A DNA stretch of 63,967 nt, filler included, from Stramenopiles sp. TOSAG23-6 (lineage: Eukaryota): NCBI GenBank assembly GCA_900128565.1. It is 3 parts of 3 records of this genome, joined end to end, with 100 filler letters (N's around TTAATTAATTAA, not from the genome) between each part and the next. Parts side by side here need not be neighbours in the genome. Positions count along the whole stretch, not along the records: positions 1 to 24,914 come from LT636000.1; 2 more parts are not named here. One strand, written 5' to 3'. The translations under genes were made by a program, and so were the position numbers. Shown here piece by piece: positions 5,547 through 45,665 of the stretch (its first letter is position 1; every line of letters starts with the position of its first letter). The notes below the pieces were generated by a model. It worked only from the letters and a program-made list of their open reading frames with translations. It did not search any database and had not been told where the DNA came from.

Positions 5547-5914
5547 CGTGTATAAAAACTTCCACCAGTTGTACTCCACCTCGGGCAAGGAAAAGAAGTG
5601 ACGAATTCAATTTCTTGAACAAGTCGAAGTTCGAAAATAACATCGATCGAGATGATTCGCCTTTGAGAATTTCTCGAGTCAAAAAAACAAACCCTAACCC
5701 TAATTATAATAAATCGTAACACAAAACTATTTTGTATAGAAATTTCGTACTTAAGCGAACGTAATCGAAAAAAAACACAGAAGAACACGCGCATATATAT
5801 CTCGACGAAACGCATGCATACAATATTAGTACACATACTTACTCGCCGGTACTTTGTGTTCTGTTTTGCGCCTGCTACATTTCTTCCCTGATTTGCTGAA
5901 AATCACTGGATAGG

Positions 5915-8536
5915 ATGCTTATGTTCCGCCTTTCTCAATGTCGTGTAGCGTGCTCCCTTGAGAAATTGCAGAATGTACGATATTTACACAAGTCTGGTAG
6001 TGTTCCGTTTAGTTTGGCACATGTGCATTCAGGACCAATACGTTCAACTATCGGTCATCATTTTAGTAGTTTGCGGAACGTAACACAATCTTTCTTCCCA
6101 AAATGGTTACAAGTAGCGTCTCAGTCAAGAAGTGTGTTTTGGAACAAAAATATTCCTCGTGGATTTGGTAAGTTCTTTCCTAAAGGAAAAGATGGATCTA
6201 GTGGTGGAGTGAAAAATACAACCGGTAGAACAAAGTCGGCGACAAAGAATGAAAAGAACACTAGCAAAAGTGGTAATACATTCGCGTCTGCTTCTTCTAA
6301 ATTAGGAAAAGACAAAAAAATGAATGGTAAAGGTAAAAAAACACAGCCTGAAGATCCTTGGGGTCAACTCGGTTCTTCAGCTTGGGTTGCATCTGGATTA
6401 CTCCTTTTTTACTTATTATTTGGTCGTTCCGAAGACAACGGCCAAGAGATAACATGGCAGGATTTTCAGTCAAAATATCTTGCGGCTGGTCAAGTGGAAG
6501 GCATTACCGTAGTCAATAAAGCCATTGCTGTTGTTAAACTATATGAACAAGGAGTCAGACGTCCGCTGGATAACGGATTTGATGAAGGACGTTCCTTTGA
6601 AAATAATGTTGGCAGCGGGTATAGTACAGGTTCTGGTACGCGTTCATCAAGTAGTGGTAGTAGCAATGGATACGATCAGAGGAAATTATATTTTACAATA
6701 GGATCAATTGAAAATTTCGAAAGAAAGTTAGAGTATGCACAACGTGAATTAGGTTTAAGAACAATTGATTACGTTCCCGTGACCTATACTCAAAGTGTTA
6801 ACTGGGGTAGTACATTATTGTCTTTAGCTCCCACACTCATGTTACTTGGTGTCACTTTATTTATGATTAGAGGAATCGGTGGAATGGGTGGAATGGGAGG
6901 TAGTGGTGGTGGAGGCATGGGTGGAATGGGTGGCATGTTTCGTGTTGGTAAAGCGAAACCCTCAACAAAAACCGCCACTGGTGTAAAATTTAAAGATGTT
7001 GCAGGTTGTGATGAAGCAAAATCAGAAATTATGGAATTTGTGCAATTTCTTAAAAAACCCGAAAAATTTGTACGTCTAGGTGCAAAAGTTCCAAAAGGAG
7101 CATTACTGGTTGGTCCCCCAGGGACTGGTAAAACTCTGCTGGCAAAGGCCACGGCTGGAGAAGCATCTGTACCATTTTTTTCCATGTCAGGTTCAGATTT
7201 TATTGAAATGTTCGTTGGTGTTGGACCGTCTAGAGTTCGCGATTTGTTTAAAAAAGCAAGAGAACAAGCTCCTTGTATCATTTTTATTGATGAGATTGAT
7301 GCAGTTGCTCGACAACGATCGAAGGGTGGATTTTCTGGTGGTAACGATGAAAGAGAAAACACACTGAATCAATTATTAGTTGAAATGGATGGCTTTGAAA
7401 CCCAAGAGGGTGTAGTTGTTCTAGCAGGTACAAATCGGGTCGATATCCTTGATAAAGCCATTTTGCGCCCAGGGAGATTTGATCGACAGATTCAAGTGGA
7501 AAAACCTGATATAAAAGGTCGTAAAGATATTAGTATGGTTTACCTGAATAAATTAAAATGCCATGGTGATGATAATGAAAAATATGCTGAACGTCTTGCA
7601 TCTCTTACCCCTGGCTTTTCTGGTGCTGATATTGCAAATATCTGTAACGAAGCAGCAATTTTTGCCGCCCGTGAAGGAAAAGAAGCGATCGAAATGGTGG
7701 ATTTTGAATCAGCCGTTGATCGTATCATTGGCGGTATGACAAAGAAAAATATGATTTTGTCACCTGAAGAAAAAAGATGTATAGCATACCACGAAGCTGG
7801 TCATGCAGTGGTTGGTTGGTTACTTGAACATGCAGATCCATTGTTAAAAGTCACTATTGTCCCTCACAGTAATGGTGCTCTCGGATATGCTCAGTACTTA
7901 CCTAAAGAAATTGCGCTTCATAGTACCCAAGCTTTACATGATAGAATATGCATGGCACTTGGTGGAAGAGCGAGTGAGGAAATACACTTTGGTAAAGTAA
8001 CAACGGGTGCTTCAGATGACTTGAAACGTGTTACACAAATGGCACATGCTATGGTTACAGTGTATGGTATGAGTGACCGAGTTGGTCAAGTTTCCTATCA
8101 ACCTGAGGATAATGGATTTGGTGGGTCTTCAAAACCTTACTCAGAACTAACAGGTCAAGTGATTGACGAAGAAGTTAAAATAATAATTGATAAAATGTAC
8201 AAACGAACGCGGCAATTACTTGTCGATAATAAAGACAAAGTTAAATTACTCGCAGAAGAACTTTTGCGTAAAGAAACAATTAATGTAGATGACGTCATTG
8301 AACTTATAGGAAAACGACCTTTCGATACTCCAACAACTTATCAGGAGATGCTCGATGCGTCTTGGAAGCGTCCAGTAACGGATACATCTTCAACAGAAAA
8401 TGAAGCGAAGACTGAAGAACCTGCTGAAGAATCTGTTGGCGACGTTGGTGCTTCACCAACTTTGGCTACTAAATGTTGTGCGACCAATTCAAAAGATGGT
8501 TTGGAGAGTCTAGGATTTGTTCGTCATAATAATTAG
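5915..8536 (+). CDS. AFG3L2: Mitochondrial m-AAA protease (AFG3L2/FtsH family)
   Basis: Walker A GPPGTGKT, Walker [24 protein letters not shown] zinc motif, two TM segments, presequence-like N-terminus; intronless. Confidence 0.93.
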
Positions 8537-10381: not shown

Positions 10382-11155
10382 TTTAAACAAAATGATATGT
10401 CGAGTATTGGCTTTTTAATGAAACAATCGATCAAATCGACGACGAGTCGACGACACACGCGACGACGGTATAGTATTCAGCATGGAAAGTTGGAGGCAAC
10501 TTGGAGCTTGGAGCCAGCGCCAATCACTCGTCGCTAAAAACTAAAAAGAAATATAATCGGAATTTCGTGTTATAAAATTGGCATGAATAGGATCAGATCG
10601 ATCAGATCTGAAACTGTGTCGAATATTTTATATCCTGTGTTACGGAGGACAATACTACCTTTGGTAAGACAAAGTGGATTAATAAAACAAAGCTAAACAT
10701 TAGTAATCCAATAGCTGGGATTCTACTTTACCTTGAACAAATAACTATTTTAACTGCTTACATTTGAAAGGAACATAGCAATGGTTTCTATTATTTATAC
10801 TGAAAAGAATGGTATATTTTCTCGAGCGCAAGGTGCCAGCTCTGGAAGCGAATCATATTTCATTGCTTCCTTGCTCATTCTTTGTTTTTCAATTTTTATG
10901 AATTGGTCATTTACTGAAGTCCTCATCTTTCTCGGCATTTCAATCCTATTTCAGCTGTTTATGATGTCGAAGTTTGAGCGCAATATCCTTTGGTATTATT
11001 GTTTCTCCTTGAAATATGGGCCATCAGTTGTCAGAAACGCTTGTATTGCTTTTGCTCAGTGGTAGGTTATATATTATACAATCAATATTACATTATTTGA
11101 CATCGCTGTTGTTTATTTATACTGTTTATTATTTTGATATTGATGACATTTTTCT

Positions 11156-12599
11156 GTGAAACCTGGAGGTTCTCCAACAAGAGATCACGCCTTGCATATA
11201 TATAATTTTAGCCCTTTGACTACTTGTATAATGTTTACGATTGTGGCAATCTACTTGTTAAGTATTAATCCAGTTGTGTCTTTGATTCGAGTATTCTATC
11301 CAGAGCATATATATGGAGTAAATAGTGGCCGTTTTTTTGGATTATTTTGTTTTTTTCTTAGACATCCTCTCGCAGTTCAAGGGGAAGGGCCGAGTAATGG
11401 CGACGGACTTGCAGCATTAAACGCGTCAGAAACTCTAATTTATCCCATGACACCTCGAGAATTAGAGCTGGGTCCGAGTGATCATGATTACTGGTTAGAC
11501 AGTAAACCTAGATTTCGTGATATGTTCCATGATAAACTGTTCGTTCATCGTTTTTTTAAGTCGCATAATGCGAGCTGTCCAGTTCTAGTTGCGGAAGTTG
11601 AGGAACATAATATAAGAAAAATGTTTGTTGAATCATCTTCATTTCCTAAAAGAATGATTTGGAAACCTCGTTACTCAACGATGGGTTTAGGTGTGGAGCA
11701 TTTTTCTACTTGGAAAAACAAGCAAGCGACGAAATCTAACTCAAGTTGGGCTCCTTCTTCAGACCCTTACATTATTGAAGAAATGATACAATCAACCGAG
11801 TGGGATAAAGTATGTTTTATTTTTTTGAATTTCGAATTTTTTTTTTCGTACCAAATTTTGTACCTAACGATTTTTTTTTACGAAAAAAAAAATATTTTTT
11901 TACAATACATGCTGAATGGTATCGCTTAACAACACTTTTTTCTTATGATGAAGAAACACCAAAAAATGGTTATATTTGGCGTATGCGAAATTCAAAAAAT
12001 GATAACCGTGTTCAAACAGATATTCTTGGTGGAGTGTATTGTATCACTGAATGGCCTACATACGTTTTATTTTTTTTTTTACAAAAAAATCGAATTCTTT
12101 TTTCGTACGAAATTTTGTACCTAACAAATTTAATTTTTTTTTTTGAAATATTTTTCCACAATACACTTATGTAGGCCCAAGAGAGAAGGGTATGTCAGTT
12201 AATCCAAGAACTGGTGAGAAAAAGCCTTTATTACCAGCTGTACATATAGCCCTTAAAAAAGCTGTTGGCTTGGCCATTAAAATGCATCGTAATCTTGGGA
12301 AAGAAATATTCTCTGTTGGTTGGGATTTACTAATTCGTGGATCAGAGCCTGTCTTTATTGAATTCAATATCAATAATGGCGTATGTTTCAATTTCAATTT
12401 TTTTTTTTGAAATATTTTTTTCGTACGAAATTTTGTACCTAACAATTTTTTGTTTGAAATTTTTTTTTTCACAATACATTTTTTTGTTGCCGATCATACT
12501 ATTGAGGAGTGTGAAAGAATGATTTCCTTTTATGGTAAAGAATTTCATGCTAGAGTAAGATCTCAGTTAATTGACTTTGACCATATTAAACAAGAATGA
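11156..12599 (+). CDS. ATP-grasp domain protein (sugar-transfer-associated-like), spliced, start uncertain. Introns 11810-11910, 12060-12166, 12381-12479
   Basis: HDKLFVHRFF, WKPRYSTMGLGV, FSVGWDLLI...PVFIEFN ATP-grasp-like motifs; frame runs to TGA 12597-12599 after removing three inserts. Confidence 0.7.
12060..12166 (+). other. Family intron, AT-AC variant
   Basis: CCTAC|ATACGTTTT...CAATACAC|TTATGTA restores PT-YVGPR. Confidence 0.75.
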
Positions 12600-13037
12600 T
12601 TCATTGTGTATTCATTGTGAGTGATTTATTTAATGCATTTTGATCAGGGTAGGGTTAGGGTTTCAAAACATTTGAATAAAAAATAAATTTTTGTGCAATT
12701 TTTGTGATTGATCTGAGATCGATTTGAGATTTTGTTTTTTGAGCGTTTTTTTTTATAGAATCTGACAAAATTAATTGTATAATTCAATGCTAAATATAAA
12801 AATATTGCTATTGAAATGTATTTGATTTTGACTTATTCATTCTATAATTTACACAAAATGCATATTTTAGTTTTATTATTTAATATATATAGCCTTATTT
12901 TTGAAAGTACTGTGATTTTATTATTCTTCTTCAAAAGATTAAAAAAAAGAAAAATCAGAAGCATACGAAACTGAATCACTCTCTGAATACTCTAACGAAT
13001 CATTCTCTGGATTTTTATTATATCAATCAAATCTTAA

Positions 13038-13937
13038 TTAATAAAACATTCTCTGGATACTCTGGACATTCTCTGGATACTCTGGACATCCCATCTTTCT
13101 CAACCATTGCAATACTTTTATGTGACCCTTTAAAGCTGCATAGTCACACGTTTCTTCATCCCAAGGACAAGGTGGATTTTGACTTCTTACCCATTTCAAT
13201 ATTTTTAAGTGACCATTTTCAGCTGCCCCATGACATGTCCATTCATGCCAAGGACAAGGTGGATTTTGACTTCTTAACCATTTCAATACTTCTAAGTGAC
13301 CATACTCAGCTGCAAAACTACACGTATACTCACTCCATGGACTGGGTGGATTTTGACTTCTTAGCCATTTCAATACTTTTAAGCGACCATTTTTTGCTGC
13401 CACAAAACTTGTAGCTTCATCCCATGGACAAGGTGGATTTTGACTTCTTATCCATTTTAATACTTTTATGTGGCCCTTTTTGGCTGCATATTCACACGTT
13501 CGTTCATCCCACGGACAAGGTGGATTTTGACTTCTAACCCATTTTAATACTTTTAAGTGACCTTTTTTAGCTGCTATACGACAGATATCTCCATCCCACG
13601 GACAAGGTGGATTCTGACTTCTTACCCACTTCAATACTTTTAAGTGGTTCTTTCGAGCTGCTACACGACACGTACGTTCATTCCACGGACAAGGTGGTTT
13701 TTGGCTTCTTAACCATTTTAAAAATTCAAAGTCCCCGTGCTTCACTGTTTCAGTACACGTCACTTTACCCCAATCAACACCAACCAGCCAAGGTCTGTGC
13801 TTATCCTTTGATACAACTCTCCCTGAGAGTCTATCTTTCAAACAAAGATAGCTGGTGATTACAATAGCAGGACCTAACCCGCTAAACACCTTTTGAAGAA
13901 CCTCTTCTTCATGTTTCGTGCGTTTGTGTGCATTCAT
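13038..13937 (-). CDS. Ankyrin-repeat protein of the CPWDE.TC..AA..GHL.VLKW type
   Basis: About 7-8 tandem 28-aa (84-bp) repeats; start at ATG 13937 assumed. Confidence 0.85.
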   Translation of the reverse strand: MNAHKRTKHEEEVLQKVFSGLGPAIVITSYLCLKDRLSGRVVSKDKHRPWLVGVDWGKVTCTETVKHGDFEFLKWLRSQKPPCPWNERTCRVAARKNHLKVLKWVRSQNPPCPWDGDICRIAAKKGHLKVLKWVRSQNPPCPWDERTCEYAAKKGHIKVLKWIRSQNPPCPWDEATSFVAAKNGRLKVLKWLRSQNPPSPWSEYTCSFAAEYGHLEVLKWLRSQNPPCPWHEWTCHGAAENGHLKILKWVRSQNPPCPWDEETCDYAALKGHIKVLQWLRKMGCPEYPENVQSIQRMFY

Positions 13938-14194
13938 TTTACACTTTCTTTGTAGAAAAAAGCTAGAAAAAAGAAGACGTGTTCGCGCCACTTGAATTTT
14001 TTTTAATTTTAATGCTTGTTTGACTGACACGCGTCTGACACGTGGCAAATTTTCAGCATGTGTCTCATACTACCTGGTCCTGGTACTACAAACGATACTA
14101 TATATACGTATTACAGTAATTTTACTTCTTCCAATGACACTGCTATTGACCTATATGGGAATATACATGCATTATCTAGCCCCTTTTTAGTGAA

Positions 14195-17100
14195 ATGCTG
14201 CGGCAATATGTCAGGATTGTGCCACTATGTAAAAGGTATGGAATAGTAGGACAATCATCGGTGAGTAGTATAGTAAACGCCAAAACCCATGCCTTACGCA
14301 TTCTGCAAAAACGGTTGTTGCATACGGCAACAACACGGAGAGAAGCTACGAAGTTTTATAAAAATGATGGAAGACAGTTTCCTACTAGGCGTCAGCGTCG
14401 TAAGTCGCGTGTTCAAAATAAAGCACGGGAATTACGTCATCATTTAGCGAGTCAAGGCCAACTATCAAAAGTTGATGTATCAAAACACTTTAGAAACTCT
14501 AGAATTGGTTTAGGGAGTTGTGATACGAATAATAATAGCACCATATTACCATATATCAATTATGGAAGAAAGGGGGGAATACCACTAAAGCTTACATCTA
14601 ATCCTTCACATGCTATAAATCTAGATACAATGAAAATGTTACATCGAAATGAAAATGTTGACGTCTGTCTGTATAACATCATCCTTTCTTGTAGTTTTGT
14701 TCCAGAAGACACGCGAAAATTAATAGATCAAATGAAAAGGTATGGTATACAACCTGATATTATTACATATTCAATATATTTAAATCGTTTGTTGGTTTTT
14801 GCTGAATATGAGGAAATAAATAAAATGAGAACAGAAATGAAGAAACATGGAGTTGAAGACGATGAACGATTCTTGAAACTACTCAACATTAGAGATTCTA
14901 GAAATAATGGCTTAAGTCGTTTGAGGACTGCAACTCTACAGAAGTATATTGATCATTCTTGTGAAGATACTCTTGCTCAGGCACATAATCTTTTTAACAA
15001 ACTTTTTGAAACACGTGAAATTTGTCTATATCAATGCAATGTCATGTTGAAAGCTTGTATGTTTAAATTATATATTTCAAAATATATTTCAAAAAAAAAA
15101 ACATTTCATATGAAATCTTTTTTTGAAACTCTTTTTGATGTTTTTTTTCCTATTTTTTTCATCATAAAGTATACTATTTTTTTTCATAAAAAATAATATA
15201 TACCTAACAATTGTTTAGTAAAAAAAAAATATTCTTTTTTTTTTTTTTTTTTTTGTACTAAAATTTGTACCTAACAAAAAAATATATATATATTCTTTTT
15301 TATGATACATGTTTTTGTCCTGAGGATTCTCTTCAGTTATTATCGAGGATGAAACATGCGAAAATTATTCCAAACGAGTCAACGTACAAAACTATATTAA
15401 ATACTTTTGCAATTTCAGGTCGATGGGGTGATGTATATGTATGTTTTATTTAAAAAAAATTTTTTTTAACAAAAAAATCGAATTTATTTTTTTTTTTTAT
15501 AAAAATTTTGTACCTAACAAATTTTCAAAAAAAAATTGAAATATTTTTCCAAAATAAAAAAGTTAGAAAAATCATTCAACACTACGATAACAGAAAATGT
15601 TCCTTTTATTTCAACCATTAGTTTCATGAGAGCACAACAGATTAATTGGTTATATACATTAGGGGCATCAGGTCGGTGGTATGCGAAATGCTTATTACAT
15701 GACCTTATTGACTGTAATGAGGCAAATGGAAATTTGTTTGCTATTTTTATTGAAAATTGTACGTTTTACGGTTTTAGTATGAATTTCAAATTTATTTTTT
15801 TTTATTTTTTTTTTTTATAAAAATTTTGTACCTAACAAATTTCGAATTTAATTTTTTTGTACAATACATGTGGAACAGTTTATGAAGTGGATGAAATTAT
15901 TAAAATCATGAATTTAGAAGGAATACCTCATACCTTTCACTCTATGCATGCATATGTATCACAACTTCTACTGGAATGTCAATATAAAAAGGCACAAAAT
16001 GTGTATCACAATTTCCTACATACTACGAACCCTAACCCTAGCGATACATCGAAACCACCGAACCCTAACCCTAACTCAACTCACCTAACGTCAAATGATG
16101 AGTTATATGAAACCTACTTTAATAGTAAAGAAAAAACTGCTGAATCAAAAATTCCTCTTGAGTATATTCTTGGAGGTAATTATAGTAGTAAAAGTTCACA
16201 ATATAAGAGTGTATGTTTTATATGAATTTCTAATTTAATTTTTTTTTTTGTTTTTTTTTCGTAAAAAAATTTCGTACCTAACAAATTTTTTTAGATTTTT
16301 TTTGAAATATTTTTTCACAATACGCGCATTAAAAGTTATTAATGGATTACGTGAACGACGCTTACGCTCATTTTTGAATTCAAGTGATGTATTCCGACGT
16401 AATCAGGCAAAAGATTTAGCCCTAACCCTATTAGATACTAACCCTAACCCTAATTTATATGGTAAAACCCCTAACCCTAGTGGTAATATCCCTAACCCTA
16501 ATTTGTATGGTAAAACCCCTAACCCTAGTGATAATATCACTGACGCTTTGCAGTATGAAAAATTATCCAAGAGAATCGAAATTCTTTGTTATACAGTATT
16601 ACGTGTTACTGCGGACTGTCCAGAAATGACATATAATTTATATGTATGTTGTACTCATTGAAAACAAAAAATTTAAATTTTAAATTTTAAATTTAAAAAT
16701 TAACATTTTTTTTATATACAAAAATTTGTACCTAACAAACATTTTTGAAATTTTTTTTGAAATTTTTTTTCACAGTACAGAATAGAATATCAAATTGTAC
16801 TCCTACGTATCATAATCATCATACAATGACAATAAGTGACGCATATAAATCTTTATTATCTAAATCTAGATTATTTAGTGATTATTCGTATTTATCAAAA
16901 ATCAATTCGCTTCATGAATCAAGACATGATAACCCTAACCCTAATGTAAGATATGATAACCCTAACCCTAATTCTACAAAGAACTCAAGTTTACTTTCTC
17001 GACGACGTTTGCAGCTATCTTCACTTCTTAAAAGTAAAACAAATCTTGATGTAGGACATATTCCTCTTAATCAGCATTCTTATGAAGGTTTATGTAAAGC

Positions 17101-18210
17101 TAAATATTTAGTTAATTCCTTAACTCTCAATGGTGCAGCTCATGTATGTTTTATTTATTTTTTTTTTAAAACCAAAAAAAAAAAATTGAATTTTTTTTTT
17201 TTTTGGTAAAAAAATTTTGTACCTAACATTTTTTTTATAATTTTTTTTCAAATATTTTTCCAAAATACATGTCACCCACTATAATGTGTTATTATCAGCA
17301 GCACGAAATCCTAACGAATCTTTAGAAATATTTTCTAGAATGAAAAAGGCTTCTATTGAACCAGACTGTAGAACATATACAAATATAGCCAGAACATTTA
17401 TTATATCTGGTTGCCGAAACGAAGCATTTGATGTATGTTTCCATCAAAAAAAAGTTTTTTTTTCGTAGTTAATTTTGTACCTAACGATTTTGTACTAAAA
17501 AAAAAAAAAATATTTTTTCACATGACATGTTTTACAAAATATGTTTAAAAAAGACATTATATTCGATACACAATCCAAGGCTTTGTTAAACGATTTACAT
17601 GTAGGTAGTCAAAGTCTTTCATCTACTCGTACGCGTGTGCTGTCTCGCTTAGTTTCATGGGGTATGTTTTATTTTTTTTCAAATTCGAGTTTTTTTTTCG
17701 TACGAAATTTTGTACCTAACGAAGTTTTTTTGAAATATTTTTCCAAAATACGGGGTACAATACATTGAAAAGGGAACACCATTATTTGTATATAATGTAC
17801 GCAAACGTTATATTTCAGGACCTTTTATAGCCAGTTCAGGACCTATTAGAGCCACCTTAGATTCAAAACAACGTGTAATTGTATGTTCTCATTATGAATT
17901 TCAAATTTATTTTTTTTTTCATACGAAATTTTGTACCTAACAAACTTTTTATTTTTGTTTTTTCACAATAATACATGTAAAATGGGATGAATGTAATTGG
18001 TTTCCCCCAGTATATAAAGTAGTCGGATACAATGTGATTCAAACAGGAATTTTACGTTCGGAAGATTTTGAGGAGTTATTTCATCATATTTATCAACATA
18101 AAAGAAAGTTGAAGAAAAAAAAACGAAAGCATAAAAAACAAAAAAAGAGGAGTAAAAAACGAGCAAAATTTACATCTCTTGGCTCAACAACTTTCGCTTG
18201 GGGCAGATAA
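14195..18210 (+). CDS. PPR-like repeat protein with 9 family introns (15057-15310, 15439-15559/15562, 15759-15869, 16211-16325, 16644-16780, 17144-17270, 17433-17528, 17662-~17753, 17881-17976); ends at 17830 or 18210
   Basis: PPR-like MKRYGIQPDIITYSIYL, MKHAKIIPNESTYKTIL, MKKASIEPDCRTYTNI; exons join in frame (MLKAC-FCPE, AAH-VTHYNVLL, EAFD-VLQNM). Confidence 0.75.
16420..16528. repeat. Interstitial telomere-like (CCCTAA)n tracts inside a coding exon
   Basis: Several aaccctaaccct copies encoding NPNP; similar tracts at 256-327, 16028-16075 and 16931-16971. Confidence 0.8.
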
Positions 18211-43400: not shown

Positions 43401-45665
43401 GACTAAAAATTGAAAAAAAATAAAACATACATGACGGTTTTACAAAATTCATTTTTGTCATTTTTCAAATCAGAATTTTCTGTATGCTTAGTATTATATA
43501 GAGAATACTTTATATTCGATTGCATGTCTGATTCATTTATATAGACTGGACGTAGTCCACACACCCGTTCGCCTGGAGGAATATTGAATGATTGTACAAC
43601 GTCCAAAGAGGAAAAATCTACATTTTTCAATTTAGTCAATGTAGTCAATTTAGTCGAGGATTGAGAAGCTGCAAGATTCGAAAGAATTAAAACTTGGTGT
43701 TGTATATTTCGATTTGATTCGTTATTTGTTTCGTTATTTATTTCTCTTTCGGTAATCATCACTGTGTACCTACCACAATGTATTTTGGAAAAATATTTCA
43801 AAAAAAAAAAAACTTCGTTAGGTACAAAATTTCGTACGAAAAAAAAAACGATTTTGAAAAAAAATAAAACATACATAAAGTACGAGTAATTCACCATCAT
43901 GAATACAATCAATATTTTTCATGTTGTTATTTTCATCTTCAATTTGATTCAATGTACGTACAACACGAGAGGTGTCACATGGCACATTTGAAATTGAACT
44001 ATTTGTTTTTGTACCAAATTTCGTACCTACCGCATTTCTAATTTGTCCATTCCTTGGTATTGACGCAGGATAATATTTGAAACGTAGATCTTCGATCACA
44101 ATTTTCTTAGGCAAAGCATCCAAGAATTGACTTTGTGAATTGAATCGATCAATACATCCATATAATCGAAATCTAAATATAAATGTATTTTCAACATTTG
44201 TACTTATTTTCGTACTTATTTTTGTACTTATTTCAGCATGTTTTCCGTTCTCCACAGATGTTTCTATACCAAAAGCACACGGTAACTTCTTCAGTATTGG
44301 TACATTTGCATTAAACATTGTAGCAAAATTTTCAGTTATATTAATGAATATTGGTATATTACACATTTTCCGCCGCTCTGGAAACATTTCTTTCTCTTTA
44401 GACAGAGAATCCGTACCAATTTTCGTACCTAATGTATCAAAAGTATTTGTAAATACACGATTTAATTTCGTTGTTTTGAACAAAATTTCCAAATGATCCG
44501 CATCGTCACAAAAATTTGAGGATCGAAATGTGTTTGGTACGAAATTTGGTACGGATTTGTTAGGTACGAAATTTGGTACGGATTGTTCTACAACAATAAA
44601 ATTTCCACGCTCCAAAAGAACACGCCATAAGTTTCCAAGTGAAGTACCAATTATGAAATAATGAAGTCGAGTATTATAAAGAGAATTACTATTTTCTATA
44701 TTATTAATATAAAATCTAGAGTAAGAAATCTGTATTGTGAAAAATTATTTCCAAAAATGTGATTTTGTTTTTTGTTAGGTACAAAATTTCGTACGAAATG
44801 TTTTTTTACAATTGGTAAAACATACTTTCTCACCTGGAGATAATTGTATTCGTCGATGTAACATTGAATTCTTATCTACATTTTTCCAACTCAAATCTCT
44901 ATTTTGTATCATATCAATAAATATGACATAACCTGAATTAGTCACTGCTATTGCATATTCTTTGAGGGTTACATTCAAAGACTCATTATTTTTGAATTTC
45001 TTTTTGGTATAGATTTTTCCATGTAATCTATCGTTCTCAAAAGTATTTGTACTTCTGGTATACCAAGGCTTCCACCATTTCAAAATCACCACTCGTCCAA
45101 ACATAATATCAATATTAACTATGTGACATAGACCCTTCATTTCATTCATTTTGTGAAAATTTTCTTTTTCAGTAGTTGTAGAAAATGGATTGTTCAAGAG
45201 GGAGGAACTACTCAAGTTATTTGACAAGTCAAGATTGTTATTCCTATGAAAATGTGTACTGGAAGATGCTTCTTTTACAATTTGCAGGACATAAATATAA
45301 CCATCAAATGAACTACACAACATGTGACAAGCATTGACTGGTTCCAAGTCAATAGCAACTAAAGTGTATCGTGGGTCAGGGAACCATTTCAAACTTCGTT
45401 TAGTAACCTCTCTACTAAAAAAGTTAACAAAACGGAAAATTAAATGGTTATTAGAACAAACCAAAACAGTGACAATACTATCATTGTGAAAACCATTTTC
45501 AACCAATACAATACGTACACGCGTGTTTGGTGTTTCTTCAGTATCTTTGCCCTGCTGCAGCACTAAAGAAACAGGCTCAACGCCATAATCAGAATTTAGA
45601 TCTTTGGGGTCTACTTTAGAAGAAGAAGATGTGTGTACGCGTAGTACACGGGATAGAGAGAACAT
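40455..45665 (-). CDS. Large hypothetical protein: beta-propeller-like N-terminus, helical middle, C-terminal Zn-finger-like FTCGH...CPIC. Introns 44730-44825, 43778-43874, 43309-43430, 41877-41975
   Basis: Five ORF pieces join in frame after insert removal; similarity to vesicle-tethering subunit architecture is inference only. Confidence 0.65.

Follow-up and report, generated by a model that had tools for sequence, protein, structure and literature searches.

An intron with inferred AT..AC ends within a family of introner-like GT..AT introns in a stramenopile genome

The window, a stretch of 63,967 nucleotides from the genome of Stramenopiles sp. TOSAG23-6, contains a gene for an ATP-grasp-like protein of 472 amino acids on the plus strand (10781..12599). 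Removal of four introns leaves an open frame of five exons (10781–11061, 11155–11809, 11911–12059, 12167–12380, and 12480–12599). The protein is 68.6% identical to its homologue P0028 over 472 columns, and 47 of the 53 homologous matches were used for the alignment. The ATP-grasp label rests on a protein atlas and on these homologues, which match ATP-grasp Pfam models mostly below the cut-off; two host exons gave no Pfam match at E 0.001. A PP2A-B56 protein of the window has its closest match in P0002 (90%), the source label of which points to MAST-3 stramenopiles. Beyond the gene, a tandem array at 13097–13718 (87-nt unit, about seven copies, 78% matches) lies in an open minus-strand frame (13038–14069), and short pairs of internal telomere-like CCCTAA/TTAGGG repeats occur at 251–332, 12649–12663, 16420–16557, and 16921–16972, some within tandem units and one within a copy of the repeat family described below, near 760.

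The third intron of the gene (12060..12166, plus strand) is a 107-nt copy of that repeat family, ATACGTTTT...CACAATACAC, with exonic AC on its 5′ side and TT on its 3′ side (...CCTAC upstream, TTATG... downstream). The exonic AC (12058..12059) supplies codon positions 1 and 2 of a Thr and would be the left copy of a 2-nt target-site duplication. The 5′ splice site ATACGTTTT (12060..12068) departs from the family donor GTAYGTTTT by its A at +1, as judged from the family patterns and a U6 alignment, and is otherwise U2-like (ATACGT, family GTAYGT). By the rule given in the accessible part of PMC11585973, in which positions +4 to +6 of a yeast-type GTAYGT donor pair with the ACAGAGA box of U6, +5G and +6T of this donor are able to pair. 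Within the intron lie the conserved family core TTCGTACGAAATTTT (12102..12116) and a branch-box-like TACCTAAC (12118..12125), whose A at position 12124 (42 nt upstream of the 3′ end) is the candidate branch point. The family 3′ motif CACAATAC and the terminal AC that follows it, which serves as acceptor and would be the right copy of the duplication, occupy 12157..12166. Record 6 of the independent DNA run X3 (12138–12407) confirms these letters, including the last C at 12166, with zero differences; the first A (12060) lies outside every locus-specific record listed from that run, which has no cover at 11984–12057 and is uninformative there.

The intron is real and is exactly removed from mRNA. 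Four sequence runs were aligned to 10800–13000, and the junction was taken from the table of contig pieces, as other family copies swamped the joint table. Record 25 of poly(A) RNA run X8 places 11949–12057 directly beside 12165–12380 with zero mismatches and zero gaps, a skip of 107 nt; this support is one RNA contig from one study, from a sample other than the sequenced cell, and the rows listed for run X6 over 10800–13000 include no junction. The spliced protein junction, WPT|YVG, aligns without gaps to the two closest homologues, P0028 and P0029, and Thr occupies the junction in 5 of the 47 aligned homologues, these two included. The first-pass annotation had proposed removal by the spliceosome and a check of the junction in cDNA; the RNA skip and the gap-free protein alignment bear out the first. 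A canonical cut from GT at 12041 to AG at 12174 or 12198 would also be in frame, but it would remove conserved residues and the RNA contig contradicts it.

Because AC stands on both sides of the intron, three cuts (12058–12164, 12059–12165, and 12060–12166) yield the same mRNA and RNA alone cannot fix the register here. The earlier suggestion that the ends of this copy point to its register is therefore not provable from 12060–12166 itself. The family, by contrast, is cut as GT..AT. At the fourth intron (12381..12479, plus strand; GC|GT..AT|TT), where the register is unique, one RNA record from each of two studies (X7-20 and X8-25) ends at 12380. A further 30 and 28 letters are left in these records and, with resumption of the exon at 12480, they account for the depth of 0.36 and 0.44 in bin 12502–12575. 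Its junction encodes Gly in 47/47 homologues and Phe in 46/47, and a shift of two bases to the left would give Asp. The second intron (11810..11910, plus strand; AA|GT..AT|GC) is also informative: the Lys at its junction agrees with P0028 and P0029, with no bridging RNA record among those listed. Since the informative copies share the GT..AT register, we infer, by alignment to it, that 12060–12166 is cut as AT..AC.

The remaining intron of the gene (11062..11154, plus strand) does not belong to the family. It has GT..TC ends (GTAGGT..TTTTTC) in a unique register, RNA record X7-17 joins 11061 to 11155, and the junction encodes Cys in 46/47 homologues. The intron, GTAGGT..ACATTTTTC, carries an ACAT 5 nt before the true end that is unused. 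That a non-family intron ending in TC is exactly joined implies that the loss of the AG rule extends beyond the repeat family. In this gene, RNA supports three kinds of intron (AT..AC, GT..AT, and GT..TC), and zero introns end in AG. The public gene model P0079, compared with window positions 5900–8536 and 11504–11809, joins the FtsH/AAA protease that lies upstream to a 71-residue piece of the host gene (97% identity), which looks like a prediction error due to non-AG introns.

Copies of the family are T-rich, measure about 100 nt, and share the donor GTAYGTTTT, the core TTCGTACGAAATTTT, the box TACCTAAC, and the end CAMAATAC plus two bases. The box has 35 matches in the window, one of which (43766, beside a minus-strand copy) is false, and a small number of copies are truncated by N or by a contig end. 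Among the window copies with visible ends in this set, 12060–12166 is the sole copy with A at +1 and also the sole copy ending in AC, as the first-pass annotation had stated. One other window copy ends in C, after G (16211–16325, plus strand; GT..GC, exon GT). With about 30 readable copies, a single coincidence of +1A and −1C has a chance of roughly 1 in 30, so the window on its own is weak evidence for a link. Other window copies include 17662–17753 (plus strand), which ends in GG with exonic GG, and 44730–44825 (minus strand), which ends in AG with exonic AA; a GC donor occurs in the 23999 region.

Across the genome assembly (21.1 Mb, 6,236 contigs), a strict pattern comprising the donor, the box, and the 3′ motif CAMAATACA plus one base, which omits TT or GT ends and diverged copies, retrieved 1,609 raw copies, 1,493 (93%) ending in AT and 46 (3%) in AG. 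Donor patterns gave 2,507 + 109 matches, against 1 + 4 with reversed patterns, and exact removal opens the reading frame in 114 of the 133 copies with long flanks, all classes summed. The terminal inverted repeat in the family consensus is only 4 nt (GTAT/ATAC) and is broken in 12060–12166. The copy number in unrelated genes and the target-site duplication fit an introner. In JGI metagenomes the core motif had a single match, an AT|GT..AT|GG family copy, and C-ending copies had 0 matches. Many copies (L305–L319) have a doubled donor GTATGTTTTATGTTTT, with a second TATGTTT about 7 bases downstream. Identical copies with identical flanks recur at C108, C148, C131, C361, and C1695–C1706, some as an inverted pair within a single contig and others spread over many contigs; they are probably amplification chimeras or redundant assembly. 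Raw copy counts are accordingly inflated by duplicated contigs.

The genome has one canonical U6, with ACAGAGA and AGC intact. Prp8 residues 1473–1572 are identical to the human sequence except for two at 1514–1515, and Gln1522, which we take to contact the 3′ splice site, is retained. A search for U6atac in the incomplete genome gave no match, and neither did a control query. The earlier judgement that the donor is not of the U12 type is upheld: the donor at 12060 is ATACGTTT, the U12 consensus is ATATCCTT, and 12060–12166 lacks the U12 donor RTATCCTT described in the available portion of PMC5029451.

The first-pass annotation held that A...C substitutes for the usual end pair and called for a genome-wide tabulation of the +1 base against the last base. 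In raw strict copies, those with +1G end in T (1,438), C (26), G (45), or A (30), and those with +1A in T (55), C (10), G (1), or A (4); these counts take in duplicated contigs, and some first letters were counted by eye. The share of +1A is thus 28% with C ends, 12% with A ends, 3.7% with T ends, and 2% with G ends. The association of +1A with C ends (10/36, against 55/1,493 with T ends) holds as a bias (odds ratio 10, P 1e-6), and A ends differ from T ends more weakly (odds ratio 3.5; P 0.04 raw, 0.09 on distinct copies). It does not amount to a rule: T is the last base in 55 of the 70 +1A copies, and G is the first in 26 of the 36 C-ending ones. Exact removal opens the frame about equally often in every class with long flanks (A..C 5/6, A..T 19/21, G..C 19/22, and G..T 54/65), whereas shifted G..T controls did so in 9/65 and 5/65. 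With T the usual end of +1A copies, G the usual start of C-ending ones, and frames restored alike in all classes, no particular end pair is required.

The +1 base of the family is a purine, and true pyrimidine starts are nearly absent: of 25 raw matches with pyrimidine starts, 17 distinct ones were inspected, and these comprise 15 internal donor repeats, 1 nested copy, and 1 real case. A single A..C subfamily was considered and rejected, because mutual similarity among the nine distinct A..C copies does not exceed that of random sets (P 0.45), which indicates mostly separate events; only two of them (L098 and L109) are mutual nearest neighbours. L098 is 106 nt long (AA|AT..AC|TG), and four of the five registers tried for it are in frame.

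The terminal C has a simple probable source. The exonic AC precedes 21 of the 33 C-ending copies with flanks, whereas exon C precedes 45 raw of the 1,438 G..T copies (about 3%). Among copies with a base other than A at intron −2, the exon has that base at its own −2 position in 10/17, and GT/GT, TT/TT, and GG/GG provide other cases of duplication in the family. The terminal AC of 12060–12166 is, on this sequence comparison, most likely a 2-nt target-site duplication, so that the duplication of exonic AC that the first-pass annotation offered as an alternative origin was right for the C. The host codon encodes Thr (AC|T), as it does in the two closest homologues, which makes the exonic AC probably older than the insertion. 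Among distinct G-ending copies, 27/40 follow exon AT, 4/40 follow AG, and 1/40 starts with A; AG-ending copies look like the products mostly of later change, resembling T-to-G toward the canonical end.

An exon ending in C also creates a CpG with the first G of the intron, a confounder of the +1A/−1C link that the first-pass annotation missed. We therefore stratified distinct copies by the last exon base; the distinct G..T denominator is an estimate. With exon C, copies ending in C comprise 6 with +1A and 17 with +1G, and copies ending in T comprise 5 and 36 (9 duplicate rows removed); with any other exon base, the corresponding numbers are 3 and 8 for C ends and 42 and about 1,000–1,400 for T ends. 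The effect of the last base on +1A survives stratification by exon C (odds ratio 3.8–4.0, exact P 0.005–0.007, nine copies), a signal that leans on three copies. Inside the exon-C stratum the link is non-significant (6 A/17 G vs 5 A/36 G, P 0.18). Exon C, for its part, raises +1A even among T-ending copies (5/41, or 12%, vs about 3%; P 0.008–0.03), and its effect stratified by last base has an odds ratio of 2.1–2.4 (P 0.03–0.07). On these numbers, the last base and exon C both act on +1A. The proposed association thus stands as a bias that outlasts the control for the exon base, and the proposed substitution fails as a requirement, given that A..T copies restore frames equally well.

The reading that we favour, with a probability of roughly 0.6, is that 12060–12166 is a U2-type AT-AC intron whose C came from duplication and whose A came from a later mutation, in a genome where the excess of such copies is partly favoured by pairing of the intron ends. 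A non-autonomous element (GTAYG...CAMAATAC) would have inserted at an exonic AC and duplicated these two bases; the right-hand AC would then have taken on the role of 3′ splice site that AT fills in most copies, and the first intron base would later have changed from G to A. A major (U2/U6) spliceosome without an AG requirement, guided by donor positions +2 to +6, the branch box, and the fixed 3′ motif, would remove the intron as AT..AC. The excess of +1A may have two causes, a faster G-to-A change after exon C (CpG) and a better tolerance of +1A where the last base is C (the first–last pair). We infer the insertion with duplication, the order of events, the U2-type catalysis, and the two causes from the patterns described above. 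The joint occurrence of +1A and −1C is about tenfold above chance, and about fourfold above it once the CpG confounder is taken into account; the odds that end-pairing causes the residual excess are about even. The tolerance order for +1A, C above A, matches mutational data in the consulted part of PMC8283771.

The strongest competitor, possible though clearly less probable than the favoured reading, is a purely mutational association: insertion at AC would supply both the C end and a CpG at the border, decay of which would turn G(+1) into A while the spliceosome remained indifferent. The action of exon C in T-ending copies is what such decay predicts, and the C-ending copies (AC|G 16, AC|A 6, AT|G 7, AT|A 2) resemble symmetric CpG decay. 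In 142 open reading frames the frequency of third-position C falls to 0.176 before G, from 0.22–0.30 before the other bases, and C/T differences within the element are 2.5 times commoner at CpG. On the other hand, avoidance of CpG in the genome is mild (observed/expected 0.89), G/A differences within the element are no higher at CpG in a noisy test (0.116 vs 0.155), and 3 of the 11 C-ending copies without exon C start with A (P 0.004–0.009), each of which would require two changes.

Two further explanations concern the A alone, and we regard both as improbable. The +1A might stem from the insertion itself, through a duplication that was longer or had slipped, or through an element variant starting with A, instead of later mutation and selection. 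Exon AT follows +1A copies more often (12/58) than +1G copies (7/109; P 0.009, with the +1G set enriched for chosen classes), which hints at longer or slipped duplications in some, and the mutually nearest A..C copies L098 and L109 also count in its favour; yet the exon after 12060–12166 starts with TT, and +1A copies do not cluster (nearest-neighbour P 0.63; A..C P 0.10). Alternatively, the sequenced cell might carry A at 12060 as a private variant, or the base might be an error of amplification, with GT..AC as the functional allele. Among the DNA records listed, none that is independent covers 12060, and the RNA comes from another sample, in which the allele might carry G. Against this, the strict set holds 70 raw +1A copies, far above plausible error rates, and true pyrimidine starts are nearly absent, which supports the class and not the single base. 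A minor-spliceosome (U12-type) intron, or a family cut throughout as AT..AC two bases to the left, would account for the AT-AC ends, the conserved branch box, and the AT on both sides that lets most copies be read as AT..AC, but is very unlikely given the donor ATACGTTT in place of ATATCCTT and given the RNA stop and invariant Gly at 12381–12479, which rule out the shifted register there.

The favoured U2-type reading can be set against known systems, as far as the parts of the papers available to us describe them. U2-type AT-AC introns are known from human SCN4A/SCN5A and yeast RPL30, and G1A mutants are rescued by changing the last G to C (PMC1557818, PMC5029451, PMC11585973, PMC8283771). 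In two of these sources G-to-A at +1 is rescued by a terminal C and A..A is weakly tolerated (PMC1557818, PMC8283771). The present intron shares with them the AT..AC ends and the U2-like donor, and the family shares the preference for A..C over A..G, with A..A second. It differs in that A..C there replaces G..G, whereas the default here is G..T and the commonest A class is A..T; in that the known cases are few conserved introns (15 in human), whereas these are scattered young copies of one repeat; and in the donor, ATACGT here against the ATAAGT consensus (PMC5029451).

Like the introners of Micromonas, Chrysochromulina-type and other organisms, the family consists of many similar short introns at new positions, in which the element brings the 5′ site and a target-site duplication supplies the 3′ site (PMC11282704, PMC9860276, in the parts consulted). 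Unlike those introners, its acceptor is AT, AC, AA, TT, GT, or GG rather than AG, its duplication is 2 nt, and it has a 4-nt inverted repeat and a branch box within the element. AT and AC acceptors find their nearest parallel, on the portion of PMC13326754 available, in Fritillaria (F. borealis and F. pellucida), whose transposon-derived introns have 3′ AT and AC, are handled by the U2 spliceosome, and carry a YAY triplet duplicated at both ends, which we count as a likeness. Fritillaria donors are mostly AG, whereas the donor here is yeast-like GTAYGT, and Fritillaria is a tunicate in which a duplication of U2AF is the explanation, whereas the host here is a unicellular marine protist. In the literature covered (subscription papers lay outside the scope), we found no report of a marine stramenopile with introner introns of the GT-AT or AT-AC type; the examined part of one supplement file of PMC9860276, where uncultured stramenopiles are named among the genomes screened, does not contain 'GT-AT'.

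Tentatively, and with the odds against it, we suggest that in this lineage the major spliceosome may have moved from a G..G to a G..U end pair, while U6 and the 3′-site part of Prp8 show no visible change, and that the thousands of young copies are a natural mutant library in which tolerance of +1A runs C > A > U > G. If true, this would be population-scale evidence for a base-specific trans Watson–Crick first–last pair (PMC8283771, in the part available) and not for the cryo-EM geometry. The first–last pair is otherwise known from a few reporter mutants and from structures that disagree on its geometry. Presumably, G..U and A..U would also fit the trans Watson–Crick geometry. More than 1,500 near-identical introns differing at the two end bases would allow the splicing efficiency of each end pair to be read from ordinary RNA-seq. 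The single AT-AC copy is of modest weight, since duplication accounts for its C and mutation bias for part of the link. What is valuable is the family, which offers a natural set of variants for testing the chemistry of intron ends; the host gene shows how far a 3′ AG is dispensable and for what reason public gene models come out broken in this lineage.
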